In this document: one piece after another, positions 34,789 through 64,000 of the stretch | How positions within the stretch are numbered: the first letter of the stretch is position 1 | Layout of the letters: each line of letters starts with the position of its first letter | Source: Escherichia phage naswa | Length of the DNA: 64,000 nucleotides | Direction: 5' to 3' (one strand) | Sequence record: MN850595.1 | Notes under the pieces: model-generated | The model's input: only the letters and a program-made list of their open reading frames with translations | What the model was told of the DNA's origin: nothing | Database searches by the model: none | Translations under genes and position numbers: made by a program

Positions 34789-36265
34789 GTGTCAGTTAGG
34801 TCACATTATGTCAGACAAGTTTTTCTCCTCTTTGTCAAGTGCTGCATGAAAAATTTACAAGCTTGTATGGTAGCATTTTTGCGGCCCTGTTTACATTCAG
34901 GAGTGTATGTATAATCCTTGGTGTGTGGGCGTTTAGACGTCTAGACGGTTGGAAGTATGCAGGTCAATATCTAATCTATTGGCTGCTAACTATATCCCAC
35001 ACAAATGATAAGAAATATAATTGTTATATGCGTAAACTGTAACTCATGTTATCAATCCCTGTATGTATCGCCAGTGGTGCGCATAATGGGTATTATGTTA
35101 AATTGCCCGTAATGATAACTATTCTCACAATGATAGGTATTCTCATTCACCCCCACAAGATAGGTTGCAAATGTTGTGCCACTGTGTGAACGGCCTAGCC
35201 TATTAATTTGCCTCACTGCCTTGATATTTGAGAATTGTTATAAGAATGAGAAGTATTCCCATTTCGTCCGCCTGGCAGCACTCCAGTCGCTACCGGCTCC
35301 TGACAGGGCAGCTCTCCTGTAGGTCAGGTCAAAATCGTGGTAGAATTGGGCCTATTCAGATATTTCTGGCTGACTCTTCAGGTCTGTGTGAGAAAAGCCA
35401 ACCTTTCCGGCGGCGGGGAGGGGTCAATTAAAAAATTTACGTGGTGTATGAAGCGCTCTTCAGGTAAGGCAGGTATTATGTGATGAAACCCTCTTCAGGC
35501 AATGATATTTGTGGGTGTGATATTTGCTGGAAAGCCAGATATGACGGGACTCCCGGCGGGGCAGGGGTAGTACAGACAGGGAAAATATGGGGGATGTAGT
35601 TGGGGAAATTGATCAGGCAGGTAGAGTATGGAATATGTTACAAGTATGTTAAATATGGAGGTTGAATATCTGCAGGATTTGTGTGTAAAATCAAAGACTT
35701 AAGTGGTGTTGTGGTATTTTCTATAAATAATTCAAGTTTAATAGGTAATATTTGTCTCTATCCACTTTGTGTGGTAAACAGATTCAGATGAAATTGGTTT
35801 ACAAGTGTATACATAATATACAAATTAAAGATACAAGAAACCCCCCTCCCCCTTCGGCTACCATTCACCTTTTCCTCTGACTGGTACTTAAACACTTATT
35901 CAGACTCTTCAGGTTATCACCCATATATCATATGGCAGTGACTGGTGTCCTCCGGCCCCTCTTTCGTCACCCGTCCGCTTCGCCATGCTAATGCCATAGC
36001 CAATGGTTCGGTTGTTCACCCTGTTCACTCAGGTGTATCTCCATACCCCTTCAAACCGAAGAGAACAGAAAACCCGAATTACTCGGTAAAAGAAAAGAGA
36101 AGAACTTAATTTTATCAGGATAGGCAAGAATGTCAAGGCATGACTGCTCACTAAACAAGCAAACAGTCATGTGTGGTAGGTAAGTGATTGTGGTGGTAGG
36201 AAATTTAGTTGAAAGATGTGTTATAGGTGCGCTTCCAGCACTTTAGCCGGGCAGCTAATTGTGTG

Positions 36266-36481
36266 TCAGTCTAGCGGTTCATCCTCTACTTCACTGAAAT
36301 CAATGTTCATGGTCTCTTCCCAACCATCGATCTCAGCACAAGAGTGGAGTTCTTTAGGGTTTACTCCCAAAGCCTCAGCAACAGAGTCTATATTTAACAC
36401 CTCTGGCAGGTATGATTCATCGAATTCAAGGTAAATCAGGCCACGAGTGTTGTCAGCTCCACCAAATATCTCTATCTTCAT
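36266..36481 (-). CDS. Small acidic protein
   Basis: 71 aa Asp/Glu-rich ORF; last gene of minus-strand block. Confidence 0.45.
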   Translation of the reverse strand: MKIEIFGGADNTRGLIYLEFDESYLPEVLNIDSVAEALGVNPKELHSCAEIDGWEETMNIDFSEVEDEPLD

Positions 36482-36602
36482 AAAATCTCCTCTGGGAATG
36501 AGAGTGTGAACAGGGTTTTATACGTTCCAATGCACAAGAATTATACACGTTTGCCTCTTCAGGCCATGCTTTAGCATGAGGAACCTGTGTGGGCTCGGTG
36601 CT

Positions 36603-36815
36603 TCATAGTCTACCACCTCTGAACTCTTCGTGCTCAGGCATAATAGAGAACCAGATATCTACGATGTCCTCCCACGTCAGGTCATCAGCCTCAGGATCTG
36701 TCTGGGACGAAGATGAAGAGTCCTCAGAATCTAAGTTTCCCTCTTTAACTGGCTCATCCAAGGGACATATGGTCACTCCTTCGGATGTCTCTTCAGATGC
36801 ATGTGTGTTGATCAT
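36603..36815 (-). CDS. Small acidic Ser/Asp/Glu-rich protein
   Basis: 70 aa ORF, ATGA overlap with upstream small ORF. Confidence 0.45.
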   Translation of the reverse strand: MINTHASEETSEGVTICPLDEPVKEGNLDSEDSSSSSQTDPEADDLTWEDIVDIWFSIMPEHEEFRGGRL

Positions 36816-36913
36816 GTTCCACCCGTGAGTATTCCGGCAACAGCCGCTATGGAAGTAATGATCATCAGGATCACCACTAAAACTTCAGACAATGTTCTCA
36901 TTGTGTATTCCAT
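36812..36913 (-). CDS. Small membrane peptide (33 aa), not in ORF track
   Basis: ATG after GGAGAA RBS and CA-rich leader downstream of consensus promoter; hydrophobic LVVILMIITSIAAVAGIL. Confidence 0.4.
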   Translation of the reverse strand: MEYTMRTLSEVLVVILMIITSIAAVAGILTGGT

Positions 36914-36933
36914 ATTCTCCAAACTGTGTGTGG

Positions 36934-36962
36934 ATACTATCACGGGAGCGGTAATGTGTCAA
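36934..36962 (-). promoter_or_regulatory. Sigma70-like promoter on minus strand (TTGACA-17-TAGTAT)
   Basis: Reverse-complement consensus hexamers upstream of small ORF at 36913. Confidence 0.5.
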
Positions 36963-37119
36963 CAGCAACGCCGCGAGGGTTTGGTTAAAATCCGAGCGTA
37001 TGGTGATTTGGGTCAAAACGGACGTGCGTTCTCGCTACGCTCGAAAGAGAGACTTGTTTGTAGAAAGCTCTTAAACGCTCTGTAACGAGATTATCTGTCC
37101 AAGGTATGCAATCGTGCAC

Positions 37120-37150
37120 CAAATAAAGAAAAGGACGCCACAGAGCGTCC
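37120..37150 (-). terminator. Rho-independent terminator (minus strand)
   Basis: GGACGC-loop-GCGTCC hairpin followed on minus strand by TTTTCTTTATTT. Confidence 0.55.
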
Positions 37151-37175
37151 TAGGTGTCTTAAATTTGATATTTTG

Positions 37176-37487
37176 CTATACCCATGAGGGCTTATCAAGG
37201 TTGGAGTAGCTGAAAGGTGTCAAAAGGTGACTGTCAAAATCCCTCAAACTATCCAAATCTTTTTCCTCGTCCTGACACCATCTGTGCCTACATTTATTGT
37301 TGTAGTGCATAGAATGCATAGCGTTCTGCAACTTAACAGGTACAAGTGATTCAGGAGTAGATAGTATTGTTGGGTATGCCAGAACCACCTCAAACAGTGG
37401 AAACACATCGAAACTAAAGTCTACCTCTGCAGAGGTTGATGGCATGTAGGAGTATTTAGCCGCCTTTGTAGACATAATCCACCTCAC
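37176..37487 (-). CDS. Hypothetical protein
   Basis: 103 aa ORF. Confidence 0.5.
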   Translation of the reverse strand: MRWIMSTKAAKYSYMPSTSAEVDFSFDVFPLFEVVLAYPTILSTPESLVPVKLQNAMHSMHYNNKCRHRWCQDEEKDLDSLRDFDSHLLTPFSYSNLDKPSWV

Positions 37488-37810
37488 ACAGGTTTGATAA
37501 TACCTTTACCGAATAACTCTTCGTATCTAATCTTATCCGGATCCCACTCCTGGATAATTTCGAAGACAATATCCAACCCAGGGATAATCACTTCTCCAGT
37601 GTCAAGTTTGGCAAGAACAAAACCAGAAGGTTGAATGGTTTCCCAGTTACGACGATTGGAATAGAAGACCTCAAAAATATCACCGACCTTGATCTGTTGA
37701 TCAAGATGTTCAAGATTCTCTTTCATATAGACGCAGCGGATTTTTCGTGCAGGCCATAGACCGCCTGCATCACGCTCATTCAATTCTTTTACAGTGATTG
37801 GTATACCCAT
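37484..37810 (-). CDS. Hypothetical protein
   Basis: 108 aa ORF with GAAGGAGA RBS. Confidence 0.5.
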   Translation of the reverse strand: MGIPITVKELNERDAGGLWPARKIRCVYMKENLEHLDQQIKVGDIFEVFYSNRRNWETIQPSGFVLAKLDTGEVIIPGLDIVFEIIQEWDPDKIRYEELFGKGIIKPV

Positions 37811-37830
37811 CTCAAATCTCCTTCATAGAT

Positions 37831-37857
37831 AGTAAAAAGAGGGGCCCAAGCCCCTCT
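37831..37857 (-). terminator. Rho-independent terminator (minus strand)
   Basis: AGAGGGGC-ttgg-GCCCCTCT hairpin followed on minus strand by TTTTACT. Confidence 0.55.
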
Positions 37858-37865
37858 CTTTGTCA

Positions 37866-38171
37866 TTATTCTACAGAGCGTTTGAACAGAATGTCTGCCT
37901 CAGACATGTGCTCAACCTCTTCTTCGATTTTAGCGCGACGTTTTTCAGCCTCATAGCGAATATCGAACTCGGTAGCCACCAGAGATTTGATGAATTTAGG
38001 AGAATACAGGTGATCCTGCTTCTCAACGAGAATGATATCCTTAATGGCATCTTTCAGATCTTTAATCTGAAGTTGGAGTTCTACCAGTTCTTCGATTGTT
38101 TTGCGAAGGCGATCACGCTCTGCAGTGTCAGAAGGAAGAGAGGTGAACAGTTCAACTTTAGATTTAGCCAT
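37866..38171 (-). CDS. Hypothetical coiled-coil protein
   Basis: 101 aa, heptad-like charged repeats; AAGGAGA RBS. Confidence 0.5.
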   Translation of the reverse strand: MAKSKVELFTSLPSDTAERDRLRKTIEELVELQLQIKDLKDAIKDIILVEKQDHLYSPKFIKSLVATEFDIRYEAEKRRAKIEEEVEHMSEADILFKRSVE

Positions 38172-55949: not shown

Positions 55950-57038
55950 TTAAAACTCCCAAATTTCTTCTTCAGCGTCGTTAACAGTTGTGTTGACGCG
56001 GTAGTCAGTGTTCGACATTTCTTGGTTCGCCGTCTGTTGTAATGAAGGTTTCATCCACACCTGCATAAACGGTAGCGGGTCCTTTGTTGGCGGCACAAAG
56101 TCTTTGTCGATGTCGTAGTAATCATAAATCGGTGAGCAGTTATAGTCAACCCACTCTTTAAGCAACGGTGAGTTAAGACCTATAATCGCTCTTCCTTCGC
56201 TGAAAATATAGTCACTCCAACCGTACTCTTTGGTTCGTACTTCATCAAGAATCTCTTTTAACTCCCCCTTTATCTCAAGGAAGCTTTTCTCCCATGCGGG
56301 ATCATTAAGCAAGATATCAATGATGGCAAAATCACCTTTCGAATGTAGCATTTCGTCAAGCATGATTTTTTGAACAAGCTGCGCCACCTGAACAAAGATA
56401 CCCTGTTCAGCTACTGCGAAAGTGCATGCAAAACTTGCAATAAACTCAATACTTTCCAGAGCTAAAAGCGCAAAAAGCGCTCTAAGAATGCATTTCCGCA
56501 CAATATCTTCTTCAACACTAGAAGGATCCAGGCGGTATTTTGCACCAATAACCTCAAGCTCTTGCATGTATTTGACAATAACGCCGGATCTGCTCAGAAC
56601 GTTTTGGTTTTCCTGAATCTCTTCTATAATCTCACGGGCATTGGGGAGGCATTGTCTAACAATCTCTGAGTAAGTTAGTGCGTGAAGAACTTCAATCTCT
56701 GACTGTTTCATCAATAGAGTGAAAAGCTCACTATTAGTGATGAATGGTGAAAAGAGGCAGATGATCGATCTTGCCGCAACGCTATCAGCCTCCCATTGCC
56801 ACATCAAGGTCTGCACCATCACGTCATAAGTTGACTTTGAGCATGTTACAAAATCTGAAATAGATTGCGACAAATCCACTTCATCCTCTGCCCAATCTTG
56901 CTCTTTTTGTTTTTTGTATAGTTCAAACAGTTGTGGATATTTTTTGTTGATAGAGTCGTACATACCCATTTGCTGTCCCAGAAACAGCGGATAGTCACCA
57001 GTTTTATGAGCGGTGTTCTCAGCATTAAATACAGCCAT
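55950..57038 (-). CDS. nrdB: Ribonucleotide reductase small (beta) subunit, class I
   Basis: Length and ferritin-like fold signature; start set to ATG after AGAGG RBS downstream of nrdA hairpin. Confidence 0.8.
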   Translation of the reverse strand: MAVFNAENTAHKTGDYPLFLGQQMGMYDSINKKYPQLFELYKKQKEQDWAEDEVDLSQSISDFVTCSKSTYDVMVQTLMWQWEADSVAARSIICLFSPFITNSELFTLLMKQSEIEVLHALTYSEIVRQCLPNAREIIEEIQENQNVLSRSGVIVKYMQELEVIGAKYRLDPSSVEEDIVRKCILRALFALLALESIEFIASFACTFAVAEQGIFVQVAQLVQKIMLDEMLHSKGDFAIIDILLNDPAWEKSFLEIKGELKEILDEVRTKEYGWSDYIFSEGRAIIGLNSPLLKEWVDYNCSPIYDYYDIDKDFVPPTKDPLPFMQVWMKPSLQQTANQEMSNTDYRVNTTVNDAEEEIWEF

Positions 57039-57049
57039 TATTCTACCTC

Positions 57050-57070
57050 TAAAATGGGGCCGAAGCCCCT
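57050..57070 (-). terminator. Intercistronic hairpin or attenuator between nrdA and nrdB (minus strand)
   Basis: GGGGC-ttcg-GCCCC followed by ATTTT on minus strand. Confidence 0.45.
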
Positions 57071-57076
57071 TTAAAA

Positions 57077-59392
57077 TTATAGTGCACAGCTTTCGCAATA
57101 CGGATCTTCAACTGAACTATCTGCAATCAAAGGATAGTTCTTTCTGGTTTCATCTTCAGCCTGTTTCTTGGCATGAAGTTCCTCTGCCAAGGAGTCACCA
57201 GCACCAACCCTAGAGTTTAAATAATACCATGTCTTCATCCCGAATTTAGTGGCACGGATAAGGTACCCTAACTGCTCCTTCATTGAAATTTTACCATCTT
57301 TCAACTTGGTGTAGTCTATGTATAAATCCGCGCTGATTGCCTGACCTGTGAATTTTTGAATCACGGCATACATATCGATCATGTCGTTAGTATCAACGTC
57401 CCAAGCCGAGGTGTAATACTCTTTCAACTCATCATAGTCAGGAACGATAAACAGCACCTGCCCTTGTGGCGACTTTTTAAAGATAATGTGCTCACGGACA
57501 GGATAAACCCCGTTAGTGGTGTTTGTTGCCAGCGAAGAGCTTTCATTAGGCATATATGCTTCAAGAACGCTATTACGTAGCCCACCATTCTCAATGATTT
57601 CTTTACGTAACCCTTCCCAATCCTGTTTAAGAGAAGGATCTTTCACCACGCTATCGACCTCTTTGTTATAGGTGTCGATTGGTAACCAACCTTCTGGATA
57701 TTTTGTTTTATGCATCCACTCGCAGACACCACGCTCTTTTGCCAACCGTAAACTTGCCTTATGCAAGCTGTAGCTGTGAAGTTCTGCAAGATCGTGAACA
57801 AGCTGTTTACTTTCAGGAGACCCGTAAGTAACCTTATGGCTGGCAATAAAATGTGCAACATTGGTAAGGCCAACCCCGATGGATCTGCGTTTTTTAACTG
57901 TGCTTTCCATATTTTCATACGGATATGTCATGATTTCCATAACATTGTCAATCATAAGCACCGTATAGTATGCAACATCCTCATACTCCTCTGGAGTAAC
58001 CCTCCCAGCTACAAGAGATGACAGGAAGCACAATGCAACCTCACCATCATCAACATCGTACTTGAAGATATTACGCATATCTGAATAGCCTTTTGTCGGG
58101 AGGGCTATTTCTGCACACAGGTTGCTTGAATAGATCACATCTTTAAAAGGTGTATGTCTATTCATCTCATCTGTCCAGTATACGTACAGCCTTCCCACCT
58201 CAGTACGCTGCGTGATCAGCTCAACAGCAAGATCTCTAGCCCGGATCCATGTCTTAGGAATACTGTCATCTTTAGCAATACGCTCAACCTCTGCATCGAA
58301 CTCCTCCATAGACATGGTGAAGATACCCTCATGCAGTTGAGGAGCGTGCTTATAAGAAACAAGCATCCAATCTAAATTCTTAGCCACACGGTTGATAAAC
58401 GACCTATTAATACCGATGGAGTAGTCCATGGTGTTGATTCTTTTTGAAGCAACAGTCATAGGGTTTCTCAAACGGATTAGCTCATCAATCTGCGGGTCCA
58501 GTGCAAGGAATGATACTGTTGCAGAACCGCCACGTGATTGTTGTCTGTTCTCCTTAACACCAGCATCAATACCTCGATAATATGGAATCTTACCCATGTG
58601 TTTAATAGTGTTACCGCGAACACCATCACCTGCAGATCTTGATGATAAATAGTAGCCGATACCTGCTTGGTTAACCGTCATTGTGTACGCAACTTCACGT
58701 GCCACACCAATAGATTTTGCTGTATCGTCAGCTTTTATTACACAACAAGATGCATACCCTGTCTTACCTGTGCGCAGCCCGTTTAAGTACGGTGTCGGGG
58801 CATTGATCTTTAAGTCGGACAGATAAGTGTATAATTTTACAACATCGTTGATACGACGTTCTTTCGGCATATTCTTCATGACAGCCATTGCTATCCCCAT
58901 AAACATCATCTGGGGAGATTCAAACAAGGTGTCTTTAAGAGTATCCTTGATCCCGTATTTGTCGCGAAACTGTTTAAGGACTGCATAGCCATAACCGAGA
59001 TCTTTACTGTGGTCAATAACAGCGTCTAAAGTGTTTAGCTCGGTAAAGCTATATCCCATATCCTCCCAATACCCTTTCTCAACCATGTCGTTGTAAAATG
59101 ATGGTAAGGAAGGGATCTTTGTAAACCCTCCAAAAGCCTCTTTATAAATCTGACCAATAAGAACACGACCAGCCATACGGGAATGTGCTTCGTCTTTACG
59201 GCTAACACAGGAGTCTATGATAGCTTGGTTAACTTCTTTGGTTGTACATCCATCATACAGTCGTTTGTATGCATCCAGTGCAATATGTGACCAATTGCCG
59301 TTACCGTCGTCACCGAAAATAGCTGCCTTATTTAAACGTTCTGGATCGAATGCCACTTCACATCCGTTGCTTTTAATTACCTTGGTGATCAA
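57077..59392 (-). CDS. nrdA: Ribonucleotide reductase large (alpha) subunit, class I
   Basis: ATP-cone start ITKVIKSNG; active-site region SSNLCAEIALPT; C-terminal CESCAL; TTG start after GGAGGAAG RBS. Confidence 0.85.
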   Translation of the reverse strand: MITKVIKSNGCEVAFDPERLNKAAIFGDDGNGNWSHIALDAYKRLYDGCTTKEVNQAIIDSCVSRKDEAHSRMAGRVLIGQIYKEAFGGFTKIPSLPSFYNDMVEKGYWEDMGYSFTELNTLDAVIDHSKDLGYGYAVLKQFRDKYGIKDTLKDTLFESPQMMFMGIAMAVMKNMPKERRINDVVKLYTYLSDLKINAPTPYLNGLRTGKTGYASCCVIKADDTAKSIGVAREVAYTMTVNQAGIGYYLSSRSAGDGVRGNTIKHMGKIPYYRGIDAGVKENRQQSRGGSATVSFLALDPQIDELIRLRNPMTVASKRINTMDYSIGINRSFINRVAKNLDWMLVSYKHAPQLHEGIFTMSMEEFDAEVERIAKDDSIPKTWIRARDLAVELITQRTEVGRLYVYWTDEMNRHTPFKDVIYSSNLCAEIALPTKGYSDMRNIFKYDVDDGEVALCFLSSLVAGRVTPEEYEDVAYYTVLMIDNVMEIMTYPYENMESTVKKRRSIGVGLTNVAHFIASHKVTYGSPESKQLVHDLAELHSYSLHKASLRLAKERGVCEWMHKTKYPEGWLPIDTYNKEVDSVVKDPSLKQDWEGLRKEIIENGGLRNSVLEAYMPNESSSLATNTTNGVYPVREHIIFKKSPQGQVLFIVPDYDELKEYYTSAWDVDTNDMIDMYAVIQKFTGQAISADLYIDYTKLKDGKISMKEQLGYLIRATKFGMKTWYYLNSRVGAGDSLAEELHAKKQAEDETRKNYPLIADSSVEDPYCESCAL

Positions 59393-59619
59393 TTTGCTTC
59401 CTCCACTTCATCAACGTATTTATCAAGGCAGGTATCAGTATCTTGCTGGATAAAGGTATCCTCTTCTACAGAGATATTTATAATTTTGCCTGTATACTCG
59501 TCATAATAAACATCATCATACATTTTAATATCGTTTGTCAGGCCGTTGAACCAAAGCCAACCAACATACTCTGACCGACTTGCAAAACCAAGATCCTTCC
59601 ACTTGGAGTTATGACTCAT
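59389..59619 (-). CDS. Hypothetical protein
   Basis: Start set to ATG after AAGGTGGTGA RBS. Confidence 0.45.
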   Translation of the reverse strand: MSHNSKWKDLGFASRSEYVGWLWFNGLTNDIKMYDDVYYDEYTGKIINISVEEDTFIQQDTDTCLDKYVDEVEEAN

Positions 59620-59629
59620 CTTCACCACC

Positions 59630-60130
59630 TTAGCTTTCAATACCGAATAATTTTTCCAGGCGATGCAGATCTTCAAAATTGAAAGGTTCATCAACAATAT
59701 GAATATCTTCAGCCTTTTCAGATTGTTTTGTATACTTTCTTACATTAACACGATCCTCTACAGGAATATCATACGGAAGATCTTGAACAAGCATTGCCTC
59801 ACCAGGTGCTTTATCCACATCTAAAATATCTACACCGTTATACATTTGCGGGTATCTAAAGTCTGCACGCATGACACCAGCAAATACATCTGCCTTTCGA
59901 TAATGTGTTGGCTTATTTTTGCATCGAACGTTTTTTCCACGAAGAACATCAATACTTTTTAAATCAAACCCTACGGCAAAGAGTGCAGCTCGGAGACCGT
60001 TTCGTGTGCGAACGTTAAACCCGGGAACGGTAGATAGGAAATCCAAAGTAACTGAAATAAATGTCTTTTTAGGAATCATAACATTACTCATATCTGTCTC
60101 CATTTCTGGCTCACCAACAAAGTGAGCCAT
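59630..60130 (-). CDS. Hypothetical protein
   Basis: 166 aa ORF. Confidence 0.5.
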   Translation of the reverse strand: MAHFVGEPEMETDMSNVMIPKKTFISVTLDFLSTVPGFNVRTRNGLRAALFAVGFDLKSIDVLRGKNVRCKNKPTHYRKADVFAGVMRADFRYPQMYNGVDILDVDKAPGEAMLVQDLPYDIPVEDRVNVRKYTKQSEKAEDIHIVDEPFNFEDLHRLEKLFGIES

Positions 60131-60189
60131 TATTATAGATTATCTAATACTATTAGTCAACACAAAAGTTACCTATCGCTGTGATAGGA

Positions 60190-61173
60190 TTAACCTTTTA
60201 CGAAGTGGTTATTAAGCAGTTGTCTGTGCTGAACCCACCCACAAAAGTTGGCAGACCAGAATTTACCATCACGGTCTTGATGGGTTACACCTTCCTGCCA
60301 AGTACTGATGTCTTGTGTGATTTCACATGAAGACAGGTAGTAGTTTAAACGTTCCATTGCGTTATCGTGATCCATAGGTGTTGCCTGGTGCTCGTAAGGG
60401 CTTGCATGAATACGATCCCCACCAATCAATTTTTTAGCCACACTGTCTGCCTTTTCAAACGTGCTGTCAATATTTCGATAAGATACTTGTGCACAGCAAC
60501 TAGCACTGATAGACAGAGCTTCTTTAGTATCGAGAATGCAGAGCTTTCCTTCTGTGTCACGTACAGCGTAGTTAAACTCCCCGTCCAAATAAACGTGCTC
60601 TACATATGGAGTGTGCCATTGACCCGGTTTAAGGATTTCAGGAGTGCTATTCACAAGAGCCTCCCACATACAATTAGCTAACATCTGAATCGTAGGATCC
60701 GCATCGTGCCAGCAACGGAGGTGGAAAAAATTATTCCACTCGGTGCTTGTTACAACTGTTTTCATGCGCTGAAAAGGCTCCACTAAGCGGTTACATACTT
60801 GCTTATGGTAACCAGCAAGGGCAAACTTCTCTGCATGCCAAGCGGCGTTTTTTGCAGCTTCTTTCCAAAACTCTTCCGGAGTTAGCTCCATATCAGTGTA
60901 CTCTACACGGATCTTTTGATCGTGTTCCCCACCATCTTCCATTCCTCGCTTATTTACACCGAAGCGAACTGGCATTGCCGGATTCTCCACAATCTGTTGC
61001 AGCATCTTTCCGACAGGCACTGCACGGGAAGACATGGCGTTTCGGCTGAACACTCGGTGCGTCATAAGCTCTGAGTGAATAATTCGAGGATACTCTAGCT
61101 CAAAAGTGGTGATGCGCTTACCTTTCTCGGAAATGCTGTCAGCAATGATCTTTGCAGTGCACAGTTTTAGCAT
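60190..61173 (-). CDS. ThyX-family (flavin-dependent thymidylate synthase-like) protein with C-terminal extension
   Basis: FELEYPRIIHSELMTHRVFSRNAMSSRA aligns with the ThyX RHR...S.R signature (first Arg replaced by Thr); AAGGAGAG RBS. Confidence 0.6.
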   Translation of the reverse strand: MLKLCTAKIIADSISEKGKRITTFELEYPRIIHSELMTHRVFSRNAMSSRAVPVGKMLQQIVENPAMPVRFGVNKRGMEDGGEHDQKIRVEYTDMELTPEEFWKEAAKNAAWHAEKFALAGYHKQVCNRLVEPFQRMKTVVTSTEWNNFFHLRCWHDADPTIQMLANCMWEALVNSTPEILKPGQWHTPYVEHVYLDGEFNYAVRDTEGKLCILDTKEALSISASCCAQVSYRNIDSTFEKADSVAKKLIGGDRIHASPYEHQATPMDHDNAMERLNYYLSSCEITQDISTWQEGVTHQDRDGKFWSANFCGWVQHRQLLNNHFVKG

Positions 61174-61373
61174 TATTTAGCTCTCCTTGTCTTAATTTTG
61201 GAAATTTCGTCTGGGTTTATGTTGGCCTTAAATGCAAGGTATCTGTTGAACATATCGGAGCACATGTCTTGGGTGATCCTGGAGGCATACACCAGCTTAC
61301 CTCCCAGATCATACACCTCTAGCCAGTCACCGTATCTGACTACAGGATCGCCACCTTTAGAACATCTGCCCAT
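61173..61373 (-). CDS. Hypothetical protein
   Basis: 66 aa ORF. Confidence 0.45.
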   Translation of the reverse strand: MGRCSKGGDPVVRYGDWLEVYDLGGKLVYASRITQDMCSDMFNRYLAFKANINPDEISKIKTRRAK

Positions 61374-61374
61374 T

Positions 61375-61968
61375 TCAAATACCTTCTAAAAACTTTCCTA
61401 TTTTATACCAGCTATTAGCGGTATAGTCAACACTGACCTTTAACTCCTCAAATTGCTCATAAGGCGTATCTTTTAGGATTTTAATAACTTCAGGGCGTGA
61501 AGCGAATTGGTTCAGGTATTCATGCCTGTCGTCAATTATAACATCTACAGCCACATTTCCCTTGAAATGCGTGGCGTAGAAGCCGTGACCCTGGGTGTGA
61601 TCGTCCAGATCCATAAAATCACTAGTCCAACGCTTTAAGAACCTTGATTTAGATGCAAGGTGACCTTTCTTGCATACCGAGATAAATGCAAGCTTGTGAC
61701 CACGAGCCACCAAATCTTTCATAACCTCAATAGCCCCATCTTCAGGCTTAAGAAAGTCGTAGAGGAACGGGTCACTCCAGAAATCAAAAGGCCCTATGAT
61801 GTTTTCTTTGGGGCGATCAGGCCAATACTTTGACAGATCGTAATACATTAACCCATTAGAAGGTTTAGTGACTGTCTTACTGGCTGGACCATATAAACGC
61901 TCCAACCACTCCCACCATGCTGTTCCTGAATCTACCAGTGTCAAATCTACATCAATACCGATTAACAT
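61375..61968 (-). CDS. HAD-superfamily hydrolase, putative 5'(3')-deoxyribonucleotidase
   Basis: N-terminal DxDxT motif IGIDVDLTLVD. Confidence 0.45.
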   Translation of the reverse strand: MLIGIDVDLTLVDSGTAWWEWLERLYGPASKTVTKPSNGLMYYDLSKYWPDRPKENIIGPFDFWSDPFLYDFLKPEDGAIEVMKDLVARGHKLAFISVCKKGHLASKSRFLKRWTSDFMDLDDHTQGHGFYATHFKGNVAVDVIIDDRHEYLNQFASRPEVIKILKDTPYEQFEELKVSVDYTANSWYKIGKFLEGI

Positions 61969-62579
61969 TCTTCTTGGGCCTCTTTAGCATCAATATACTT
62001 GCACACAATCTCCGATGCACATTCCCAAGGTGCACCTTCAGGGTTTACAACATCGAACTCAATTCCTTTTATTCCGTTCTTTTCCAGACTTAGATAGGTT
62101 CTGGAATCATTTCCCCAGTCATATCCGACACGGTGAATACGGAACAACAACAGATCTCCACCTGTGCTGTACGCGTACTCGCTAAGGCATGCCAGCTCCT
62201 CTTTGAATCCACCATCGGAGTAAACAACAACCCCTTTACCTTTAGGGAAATCTTTCTTCAAAGATGCGACTGCGGCTTTACCGAAAGCATCTTCACCAAA
62301 GATAGGTTTAATCAGATTTTCACTACAATGGATCATCCATTCTCGCGGAGAAACATGCTTACCGTCTATCATTAAGAAAGGGCAAGGCTCTTCTTTGTAG
62401 TGGCGGTCATAAAGTGCATTCCAGAGTTGAGGAGTTACACCAGCTGCCTTAATTGCCACACTGAAGAGCATCTCCTTAACCTCACGGTGGTGTGAGTTAG
62501 GAATAGCTTCCAACAAGAGATCTGCAATGTGATCCTTACCACTGCTGGGTGGGGCGTTAAGAACAATAATATCCATCAA
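61962..62579 (-). CDS. Deoxynucleoside monophosphate kinase-like protein
   Basis: P-loop-like APPSSGKDHIADLL resembles T4 gene 1 dNMP kinase GVKRSGKDTTADFI. Confidence 0.55.
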   Translation of the reverse strand: MMDIIVLNAPPSSGKDHIADLLLEAIPNSHHREVKEMLFSVAIKAAGVTPQLWNALYDRHYKEEPCPFLMIDGKHVSPREWMIHCSENLIKPIFGEDAFGKAAVASLKKDFPKGKGVVVYSDGGFKEELACLSEYAYSTGGDLLLFRIHRVGYDWGNDSRTYLSLEKNGIKGIEFDVVNPEGAPWECASEIVCKYIDAKEAQEEC

Positions 62580-62779
62580 AAACCTCCGTGGTATTCTTCA
62601 ACTGCATCAATAATACTTTTACACTTATCTACCAGCTCGTTAGCCACTACAGCATCGTCTTCCCAAACAGCTTCCTCGATCTGATCAAGCAATGATCGCA
62701 TCTTACCCATCATTTCTGGGATAAAGTCTTCTGAAAAGCTGTCTGGAATTGTTAACTTTAGTGTCATTGCGTTCTCCAA
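62576..62779 (-). CDS. Hypothetical acidic protein
   Basis: 67 aa ORF, ATGA overlap. Confidence 0.45.
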   Translation of the reverse strand: MENAMTLKLTIPDSFSEDFIPEMMGKMRSLLDQIEEAVWEDDAVVANELVDKCKSIIDAVEEYHGGF

Positions 62780-62794
62780 TCATACTATGCGTTA

Positions 62795-63253
62795 TTAGAA
62801 GTTTGTTTTTACACGTCCCTTTTCATCAACCTCGTTGTTGGCTAGAAGCGTTACAAAGTCTGTGAAACGGACATGAAGAACTCTTTTCTTATCAAGGTAT
62901 CCTAAAGCCACCCCTGAGAAATTTAGCATCAAAGGGGCTAAAGAAGCTCTGGCACTGAAATGCTGTTGTTCTACCCTTCCAACACCCTTAGTGTAGGATG
63001 GGTTAAGATTGTAAGTTCTGAATCCCAGTTTTGTTGGAGCTTTAGAATTAAAAACAACTTTATAGCGTTTCTTACTCAACTTATGCTCCAGGATAAGCAT
63101 TCCCTTATCACCCTTGATAAGTTGAAAATCTGTAAAGTGCTCTTTTAATACGAAAGGTAGTGCCAGTCCCATCGCCTGCCCCCTTTGTACCGCTGTCTCA
63201 CCAAAAGCTTTTGCATCAGTAAGTTCTTTGGTCAAGTCTATGCTTTTGATCAT
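62795..63253 (-). CDS. Hypothetical protein
   Basis: 152 aa ORF overlapping methyltransferase 3' end. Confidence 0.45.
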   Translation of the reverse strand: MIKSIDLTKELTDAKAFGETAVQRGQAMGLALPFVLKEHFTDFQLIKGDKGMLILEHKLSKKRYKVVFNSKAPTKLGFRTYNLNPSYTKGVGRVEQQHFSARASLAPLMLNFSGVALGYLDKKRVLHVRFTDFVTLLANNEVDEKGRVKTNF

Positions 63254-64000
63254 ACCTAGTCTCCAAAATGTATTGTAGTTCTTTCTTACCTATACTCTTC
63301 ATTCCGGCAGTCTTACCTGCTTCTTCTTGAAAAGAAGAATAGCATTCAGCAAACACTCTGTCAACACCGTCAACTAAAGATTTTATGAAATATGTTGATT
63401 CTTCAGATTTTGGGTCATCCTCCCCCAATACTTTTCCAGCATTATACCCAACACGTCTTACACAGAAGTCGTAGTCATCTGGAGTGCTAAAAGAAAATAA
63501 CTTATTCTCCCCAATCTCTACAGGATCCCTGTTGCACGCCTTTTTCTCCCAAATTTGGAAAACACACGGCACGTCATAAGGTTTGCCATTAAGTAGAAAC
63601 GAGTTCTTAGGGCACCTTTCACTGTAGACAAGGTGCATAGACATGTCCAGTTTGTTTGCAAAAAATATTTTTTCAAATGTCCGTGGCAAGATGAAGGCTA
63701 TAGCCCCTCCAAGCTCTAGCAATGATGCACAATGGTTAAAGAATTTGCAAGCTAAAGATGAATTCTTGCCAAATGGTGGGTTACCTATGAAGACATCTGC
63801 CTTGGGATGCACCTCCAAGAAGTTTGCCTGAATGCACGGTGTTGGTCCTTCAAATTCAGGATCTGGTACCAGATCGTAAGACAATATCTCTGAAAATAGT
63901 TTTGAAAAAGAACCCCTTCCAGCAGAAGGCTCAACGTATGCACAATTTCCATACTTATCTTTTACTTTACCAACAAGATATTCTGCATACTCAGGGTTTG
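63216..64000 (-). CDS. DNA N6-adenine methyltransferase (gamma-class), 5' end beyond window
   Basis: Open frame continues without stop to window edge; motif I EPSAGRGSF lies upstream of track start and precedes motif IV NPPF. Confidence 0.6.
   Translation of the reverse strand, partial: NPEYAEYLVGKVKDKYGNCAYVEPSAGRGSFSKLFSEILSYDLVPDPEFEGPTPCIQANFLEVHPKADVFIGNPPFGKNSSLACKFFNHCASLLELGGAIAFILPRTFEKIFFANKLDMSMHLVYSERCPKNSFLLNGKPYDVPCVFQIWEKKACNRDPVEIGENKLFSFSTPDDYDFCVRRVGYNAGKVLGEDDPKSEESTYFIKSLVDGVDRVFAECYSSFQEEAGKTAGMKSIGKKELQYILETRYDQKHRLDQRTY

Follow-up and report, generated by a model that had tools for sequence, protein, structure and literature searches.

Flavin-dependent thymidylate synthases of the ThyX type (PF02511, TIGR02170) are represented by solved structures from Thermotoga maritima (TM0449; 1O26), PBCV-1 (A674R; 2CFA/4FZB), Mycobacterium tuberculosis (2AF6) and Helicobacter pylori (3AH5), and the canonical enzymes are about 190-250 amino acids (aa) in length. 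In the T. maritima enzyme the first arginine of the RHR signature (R78) stabilises the reduced flavin, facing its N1/C2=O, while Tyr91 hydrogen-bonds His53, and mutation of Tyr91 makes flavin oxidation 1000-fold slower (PMC11940539). The first Arg and Arg190/Arg165 of the M. tuberculosis and H. pylori enzymes touch the flavin and the phosphates of flavin adenine dinucleotide (FAD) (PMC6514825). Canonical ThyX is a homotetramer with bound FAD, each active site being built from three subunits, and makes thymidylate with methylene-tetrahydrofolate and NAD(P)H. A ThyX-like C5-methylase of uridine and deoxyuridine monophosphates (UMP and dUMP), PolB of Streptomyces cacaoi (4P5A), keeps its segments in the usual order, and its RHR motif is complete (LMRHRTWSFNEESARY). 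Here we describe a member of this family in Escherichia phage naswa (MN850595.1). It is the product of a 327 aa open reading frame (ORF) on the minus strand, at 60190-61173 of the 64,000-nucleotide stretch analysed, hereafter the window. This is the orthologue of rV5 gp106, which the genome paper of that phage lists as thymidylate synthase (PMC3606486). We propose, with a probability of roughly 0.8, that it is the phage's own flavin-dependent thymidylate synthase, an ordinary producer of deoxythymidine monophosphate (dTMP), belonging to a lineage in which the ThyX segments are rearranged.

The source of the window is a Vequintavirus, an rV5-like E. coli myovirus. Bases 59000-63000 are shared at 99.9% identity with HdK5, rV5_ev168, pangalan, CarlMeissner and further phages, and at least 80% of this stretch is spanned by 117 phage records. 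The gene itself is 99.9-100% identical to Vequintavirus genes labelled "(FAD-dependent) thymidylate synthase" in GenBank, and more than 100 near-identical Vequintavirus genomes give the gp106 orthologue the label "thymidylate synthase". Gene and label are already known. What is reported below, namely a lineage-wide change of motif, a charge moved along the loop, segments out of order and a conserved tail, is apparently undescribed as far as we could find, no description having been located in the full-text literature, with most subscription journals outside the search.

ThyX family membership and distribution

The predicted protein matches Pfam Thy1 (PF02511) with 37.4 bits against a gathering score of 24.8, residues 23-178 lying on positions 60-190 of the 191-position profile, and it matches PHROG_85 ("thymidylate synthase") at 1.6e-112. 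An earlier note on this DNA, made from the letters alone, had aligned the N-terminal half with the ThyX core, and the Pfam match bears this out. With the NCBIfam thyX equivalog TIGR02170, residues 22-180 align to profile positions 60-207 at 40 bits, below the cut-off of 87.9; NCBIfam has no model for this lineage. An AlphaFold2 monomer model built with 71 homologues gave a mean predicted local distance difference test (pLDDT) of 86.4 and a predicted template modelling score (pTM) of 0.86. When it was compared using Foldseek with the viral predicted structures of BFVD, all 16 of the UniProt-named matches at E ≤ 0.001 were thymidylate synthases or ThyX-like proteins. As modelled, the protein has the three-dimensional fold of ThyX.

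A HMMER scan of 1.84 billion representative sequences returned 5,031 clusters (50% identity) at E ≤ 0.001, with 1,987 at E ≤ 1e-30. Among 50,697 phage records the rV5 type of enzyme is present in 1,035, which include rV5-like phages, Phapecoctavirus, ICP1, Pakpunavirus, N4-like and phiCbK-like phages, while collinear ThyX, matching the T. maritima protein, occurs in 2,142. The lineage makes up roughly one third of the ThyX-like genes in sequenced phage isolates. The collinear enzymes (of mycobacteriophages, cyanophages, Streptomyces phages and Thermus phages, annotated ThyX or ThyX-like) resemble the rV5 type in being abundant, in containing inteins, and as presumed auxiliary dTMP synthases borne by phages. 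Unlike the rV5 type, which forms a separate group and gives no single-sequence match to a solved ThyX, they align end to end with T. maritima ThyX at 27-47% identity.

Segment order of the predicted protein

When PDB sequences were searched, the single native protein sequence gave no match at E ≤ 1, and a native-order profile of close relatives gave a best E of 0.57. Since these native-order searches failed, a rearrangement test was made. With residues 183-262 placed before residues 20-182, the match to Pfam Thy1 rose from 37.4 bits to 54.3, and profile coverage grew from 60-190 to 15-190; over the placements of residues 215-262 ahead of the core the score was 54.3-54.7 bits. In controls, the wrong order (the tail placed in front) gave 36.9 bits and the core alone 38.1 bits. 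Against PDB sequences the rearranged single sequence matched ThyX chains only, and these alignments crossed the artificial join (IHASPYEH on one side, RITTFELEYPRIIHSELMTHR on the other) without a gap. A rearranged profile of 30 diverse family members matched every solved ThyX, that of T. maritima at E 2.4e-11 with a single alignment running through the join; the other values were 1e-8 (6j61), 2e-7 (H. pylori), 2.5e-6 (PolB), 4e-5 (PBCV-1) and 7e-5 (M. tuberculosis), the last four lying between 2e-7 and 1e-4. With the same columns, the score against T. maritima ThyX was 28.5 bits (E 9e-6) in native order versus 46.9 bits after rearrangement. In native order the pieces aligned out of sequence, profile positions 191-232 falling on T. 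maritima residues 20-59 and positions 3-31 on residues 62-90.

The motifs of the displaced segment agree with this. CAQVS231Y corresponds to ARVS30F of T. maritima, and H256-A-S-P-Y-E-H262 to H53-E-T-P-F-E-H59. Family frequencies were taken from 134 aligned sequences, that is, the query and 133 normal-length representatives at 50% identity or less; S231 and H256 are each present in 134/134 and H262 in 133/134. Only 19 residues precede the first core strand. In the AlphaFold2 model and the alignment, the N-terminal strand forms a hairpin with that strand and the chain continues directly into the core, the usual helices not lying between. At residues 216-262 the model shows a pair of helices and a loop, like those that stand ahead of the first core strand in ThyX. 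From these comparisons we conclude that residues ~215-262 are the canonical ThyX helices and the HxSPxEH flavin/folate motif, moved behind the core; the position of this module in three dimensions we infer.

The chain thus runs from the N-terminal strand through the core to the two-helix/His-motif module and a conserved tail of ~65 aa, whereas the canonical order is N-terminal strand, two helices (with Ser30 and H53-x-T-P-x-E-H) and core. Strictly, the rearrangement is a transposition of the helix-helix-His module and not a clean circular permutation, because the N-terminal strand (residues 6-15) remains at the N terminus. A duplication followed by partial deletions could have been the route. 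The rearranged segments also explain why the standard models cover no more than half of the protein and why the equivalog cut-off is missed. The earlier note had taken the protein to be a ThyX core with an added C-terminal extension of ~100 aa. In fact 149 residues lie beyond the end of the Pfam match, and those at ~215-262 are the relocated canonical module, so that the extra length conceals a changed order of ThyX segments.

Active-site loop and flavin site

The loop T38-H39-R40-V-F-S43-R44-N45-A-M-S48-S49-R50-A51 aligns without gaps to R78-H79-R80-I-A-S-Y-N85-E-L-S88-G-R90-Y91 of T. maritima ThyX. The THR...S.R signature that had been read from the letters is therefore correct (T38-H39-R40 and S48-S49-R50 against RHR and S-x-R), and relative to the canonical RHRxxxxxxxS motif the first R is replaced by T38 while the H, the second R and the S are kept. 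The pattern for the lineage is THRxxS(R/K)NxxSSRA, with T at position 38 in 128/134 sequences, H at 39 in 133/134, R at 40 in 110/134 (K in 8), R or K at 44 in 127/134, N at 45 in 124/134, S at 48 in 132/134, R at 50 in 133/134 and A at 51 in 133/134. The Thr-for-Arg change is a signature of the whole lineage and not a one-off substitution, and to call the protein atypical, as had been done, is misleading, since THR is the rule in this family of 5,031 cluster representatives at 50% identity.

A basic residue occupies position 44, corresponding to Tyr84 of T. maritima, in 126 of the 128 sequences with T38 versus one of the five with K or R at 38 (Fisher p = 6e-6, uncorrected for shared ancestry). 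We read this as a positive charge that has been shifted six residues along the same loop, from position 38 to R44, where it probably does some of the work of the first Arg; R44 would then partly substitute for the lost flavin-contacting arginine. Two further residues of the canonical flavin site differ. The equivalent of Tyr91 of T. maritima is A51, and that of its R165 (R190 in M. tuberculosis) is T144 (131/134), so that both arginines with which canonical enzymes contact the flavin are Thr in the rV5 type. Because T38, A51 and T144 replace canonical flavin-site residues, the alignments suggest that the flavin site is rebuilt, and consistently so across the lineage.

The residues that bind dUMP are retained in the alignment, R80, S88, R90, R147, N169 and R174 of T. 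maritima corresponding to R40, S48, R50, R129 (133/134), N148 and R153 (134/134), respectively. Also kept are the equivalents of H79 (H39), N85 (N45), S30 (S231), H53 (H256) and E58 (E261), of which N45, S231 and H256 belong to the flavin/folate set, His53 being the flavin/folate-stacking residue, and about 60 positions in all are near-invariant across the 134 representatives. Several homologues of 520-650 aa (P0126, P0154, P0147, P0201, P0216 and P0236) contain inteins within the THR...SSR loop, in which a splicing domain is combined with either an HNH or a LAGLIDADG nuclease. Insertion occurs at two points at least, directly after "THR" and after "NSSS". Intein insertion is a usual mark of an indispensable active-site segment.

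Insert and C-terminal tail

Apart from the relocated module, the truly additional parts of the sequence are a β-hairpin insert (~194-214) and the tail (263-327); neither the variable insert nor the GNxxGWxQHR motif of the tail belongs to canonical ThyX. The tail is variable in the middle and ends in GN309-x-x-G-W313-x-Q315-H-R317, with N309 in 127/134, W or F at 313 in 132/134, Q315 in 130/134 and R317 in 134/134. A Caulobacter phage homologue retains the tail motif though its tail is ~40 aa shorter. Our guess is that the tail might contribute to the rebuilt flavin/phosphate site or to an oligomer interface. The similarity of W-x-Q-H-R to W-F-R-H-R raised the idea of a decayed second copy of ThyX, which was rejected when hhalign of residues 263-327 against the core gave a probability of 0.3%.

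Predicted function and alternative explanations

The enzyme would convert dUMP to dTMP with methylene-tetrahydrofolate and reduced flavin, and would top up deoxythymidine triphosphate for replication of a 43% GC genome, alongside the products of the ribonucleotide reductase, deoxynucleoside monophosphate (dNMP) kinase-like and nucleotidase-like genes. Ordinary dTMP synthesis is the most likely function because the substrate-binding set is intact, this is the sole thymidylate synthase found, the gene lies in a cluster for supply of deoxynucleoside triphosphates (dNTPs), the type recurs in 1,035 records, and phages of this group are sensitive to restriction. The fold, the homology of the segments and their order, the conserved residues and the genomic setting are direct results of the analysis; we infer the catalytic activity, the cofactor and the oligomeric state, as well as the roles of R44 and of the tail. 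The same net reaction and role in large lytic phages are presumed for ThyA and T4 Td, which have an unrelated fold and mechanism. PolB differs in another respect, acting on UMP in secondary metabolism, whereas the rV5 type is encoded in a phage dNTP-supply cluster.

Several observations weigh against this reading. The protein misses the NCBIfam thyX equivalog cut-off (40 versus 87.9 bits), the equivalents of R78, Y91 and R165/R190 are replaced throughout the family, and the model is at its least confident in the relocated module, with pLDDT 56-69 for residues 221-260. A small base change, for instance to 5-hydroxymethyldeoxyuridine (5-hmdU), would be compatible with restriction sensitivity, and no biochemical or genetic test of the lineage was met with in the full-text literature searched.

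The low model confidence there also fits the view that no rearrangement has occurred and that a ThyX core is joined to an unrelated C-terminal domain, the resemblance of residues 225-262 to the HxSPxEH and CAQVSY motifs being due to chance or convergence. Consistent with that view, the profile of the segment alone scores a modest 15.8 bits against T. maritima ThyX (E 0.12 in a PDB-sized search), and the N-terminal strand is still N-terminal, hence there is no clean circular permutation. With just those few pre-core residues, however, the protein would otherwise lack counterparts of Ser30 and His53, both of them employed in every ThyX active site. Moreover, the segment gains ~16 bits (Pfam), or ~27 bits (family profile against T. 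maritima ThyX), in the canonical position only; the alignment spans the join free of gaps; S231, H256 and H262 show little or no variation among the 134 diverse members; and the model shows two helices followed by a loop, as in ThyX. An unrelated domain therefore seems improbable. Least probable of all the explanations considered is a non-catalytic ThyX-like protein, such as one that binds nucleotides or flavin and regulates the dNTP machinery of host or phage. It would fit with the change of three mechanistically important residues and with the score under the equivalog threshold, and dTMP synthase activity is a prediction. Against it, the near-invariance of ~60 positions across the 134 representatives, all of the substrate-binding arginines included, argues for selection on the active site; inteins target the active-site loop; and the genomes of the carrier phages show no other thymidylate synthase.

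The remaining explanations concern the product. The earlier note had left open an ordinary thymidylate synthase or a pyrimidine-modifying variant, and of these the former is favoured by the lineage-wide Thr, the retained dUMP residues and the lack of another thymidylate synthase. In a modifying enzyme the methylene on dUMP would be left unreduced or would react with water, and the resulting 5-hydroxymethyl-dUMP, or some other nucleotide substituted at C5, would enter the phage DNA. An exocyclic methylene intermediate does occur in ThyX chemistry (PMC8989533), two residues, Y91 and the RHR arginine that faces the flavin N1/C2=O, are replaced family-wide by A51 and T38 respectively, and neighbours resembling dNMP kinase and nucleotidase are found in some modified-base pathways. 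Loss of the R78 equivalent alone, however, predicts no different product, because methylene transfer itself needs reduced flavin. The phage would also be without a thymidylate synthase of its own, and the same type is present in 1,035 phage records from many groups. The known 5-hmdU pathways employ ThyA-family hydroxymethylases together with 5-hmdU DNA kinases and aGPT-Pplases (PMC8989533), none of which is annotated in the CarlMeissner genome. Furthermore, the Vequintavirinae are "exceptionally susceptible" to restriction-modification systems (PMC8594841), and XbaI cuts rV5 DNA (PMC3606486). A modifying role found no support in the sequence, context or literature evidence gathered, a small modification being beyond sequence analysis, and we regard it as quite improbable. 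Since both flavin-contacting arginines and Tyr91 are replaced and a new conserved tail is present, it is conceivable, as a long shot, that the lineage handles flavin differently, with another cofactor form or reductant or an altered handling of the methylene intermediate, and that in at least some phages it releases a C5-modified deoxyuridylate other than thymine. A ThyX-fold methylase that acts not on dUMP but on UMP (as PolB does in polyoxin biosynthesis) or on deoxycytidine monophosphate is very unlikely, for the uracil- and phosphate-binding arginines R40, R50, R129 and R153 vary little or not at all, as in enzymes specific for dUMP. The genes also stand in a deoxynucleotide-supply context in lytic phages, those of N4-like members 2 kb from a dCTP deaminase gene, and no other thymidylate synthase was found in the window or the CarlMeissner genome.

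An ordinary dTMP synthase thus remains the favoured reading, and for an rV5-like phage it means an ordinary thymidylate synthase with no sign of exotic DNA. The alignments indicate that the rV5 type fails several of the features that define canonical ThyX, yet it most probably works like one. A common phage enzyme that is routinely labelled ThyX differs from the studied enzymes in segment order, in three residues (Thr for the first RHR Arg, Thr for R165 and Ala for Y91 of T. maritima) and in a conserved tail. If active, it would be a natural experiment on which ThyX residues are dispensable and on how a flavin site can be rebuilt, with relevance to the ThyX mechanism and to inhibitor design.

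Genomic context

The gene lies in a run for nucleotide supply comprising NrdD/G, glutaredoxin, NrdB, NrdA, two small proteins of unknown function, the thymidylate synthase, another small unknown, and the NT5C-like and dNMP-kinase-like proteins. The last two were already recognised in the earlier note, and profile matches agree with it (Table 1). More distant members are found near nrdA (ICP1), nrdZ (a Pakpunavirus) and dcd (an N4-like phage), the dCTP deaminase of the N4-like members feeding dUMP. In ICP1, Pakpunavirus and N4-like phages, the annotation around the homologue lists no gene for defence or hypermodification.

CarlMeissner, 99.9% identical over window bases 59000-63000, served as a related complete genome. 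Its annotation includes no ThyA, second ThyX, dihydrofolate reductase, hydroxymethylase, 5-hmdU kinase or amino-acid:DNA transferase. With ThyA of E. coli and ThyX of T. maritima as queries, tblastn against the window and this genome gave chance matches only (E > 1), and no ThyA-like sequence was present in either (best E 1.9). The 166 aa ORF downstream, annotated as "putative thymidylate synthase" in GenBank OK272482, was considered as a second enzyme of this kind. The label was not accepted because neither Pfam nor NCBIfam gives a match to the protein, which falls in a PHROG without assigned function (PHROG_5557). Its true start is probably further in, since the listed ATG stands 1 nt past the -10 box of a sigma-70-like promoter and residue 14 is the first to be covered by the PHROG match.

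The related genome MZ501054 encodes three putative N6-adenine and two C5-cytosine DNA methyltransferases, and a methyltransferase gene at 63216-63884 (minus strand) starts just upstream of the nucleotide-supply cluster. Because the genome encodes several such enzymes, the virion DNA may carry methylated bases even with unmodified thymidine.

Gene layout and related records

The ORF list gives a complete reading frame from ATG to TAA (stop codon 60190-60192) which, with a Shine-Dalgarno sequence ahead of it, upholds the gene call of the earlier note. The stop codon of the 66 aa ORF just upstream overlaps the start of the thymidylate synthase gene as TAATG, which suggests that the two are translationally coupled. 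The coordinates of these and the other features are collected in Table 1.

Table 1. Features of the thymidylate synthase gene and its surroundings in the 64,000-nucleotide window
Feature	Position	Strand	Basis or remark
Class Ia ribonucleotide reductase beta, downstream	55950-57098	-	ORFs; annotation of identical phages
Class Ia ribonucleotide reductase alpha, downstream	57077-59392	-	ORFs; annotation of identical phages
166 aa ORF, downstream, PHROG_5557 (function unassigned)	59630-60130	-	"putative thymidylate synthase" in GenBank OK272482
Sigma-70-like promoter, 11/12 consensus match, before next gene	60132-60160	-	pattern scan, direct reading
Terminator-like hairpin CCTATCACAGCGATAGG and T-rich run, 2 nt past the stop codon	60172..60188	-	pattern scan, direct reading; consensus match only
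Whole gene, ThyX-family protein, rV5 gp106 orthologue	60190..61173	-	ORF list; PHROG_85; annotated Vequintavirus genes
Family-specific tail, residues 263-327 (~65 aa)	60193..60387	-	conservation; model pLDDT 80-93
Relocated ThyX N-terminal module, residues 215-262, two helices and His motif	60388..60531	-	Pfam rearrangement test, family profile, conservation
Length-variable β-hairpin insert, residues 194-214, after the conserved W186-H187-x-P189 strand	60532..60594	-	alignments; model strands E192-196, E199-205, E211-214
ThyX core, residues 20-182, usual order: strand, THR...SSR loop, helical region, NR129, N148...R153	60628..61116	-	
Active-site loop, residues 38-50	61024..61062	-	gapless alignment to T. 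maritima ThyX and PolB
N-terminal β strand, residues 1-19 (model E6-15)	61117..61173	-	AlphaFold2 secondary structure, alignment
66 aa ORF just upstream, PHROG_4903, conserved, no assigned function	61173-61373	-	stop overlaps the start of the 327 aa gene
Shine-Dalgarno AAGGAG, 9 nt upstream of ATG	61183..61188	-	direct sequence reading
HAD/NT5C-type 5'(3')-deoxyribonucleotidase-like protein, 197 aa, upstream	61375..61968	-	Pfam NT5C 26.3 bits vs cut-off 24.8; PHROG_420
dNMP-kinase-like P-loop protein, 205 aa, upstream	61962..62579	-	PHROG_139 deoxynucleoside monophosphate kinase, 9.3e-45

In Escherichia phage vB_EcoM-ECP26 the orthologue is annotated in BFVD as two adjacent proteins, A0A4Y5TVX3 (245 aa) and A0A4Y5TVY4 (97 aa), both of which match parts of the 327 aa protein at 96% identity; a frameshift or an error in sequencing probably accounts for the split. 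Some 20 records that bear the name Campylobacter phage and give C. jejuni as host, MG065674 ("Campylobacter phage A140") among them, share at least 99% identity with rV5-like coliphages over window bases 59000-63000, and their assignment to this host looks doubtful. Over the window as a whole, the GC skew turns from positive to negative at ~36000-38000, with a maximum of the cumulative skew near 36 kb, which is probably associated with a change from plus-strand to minus-strand genes.

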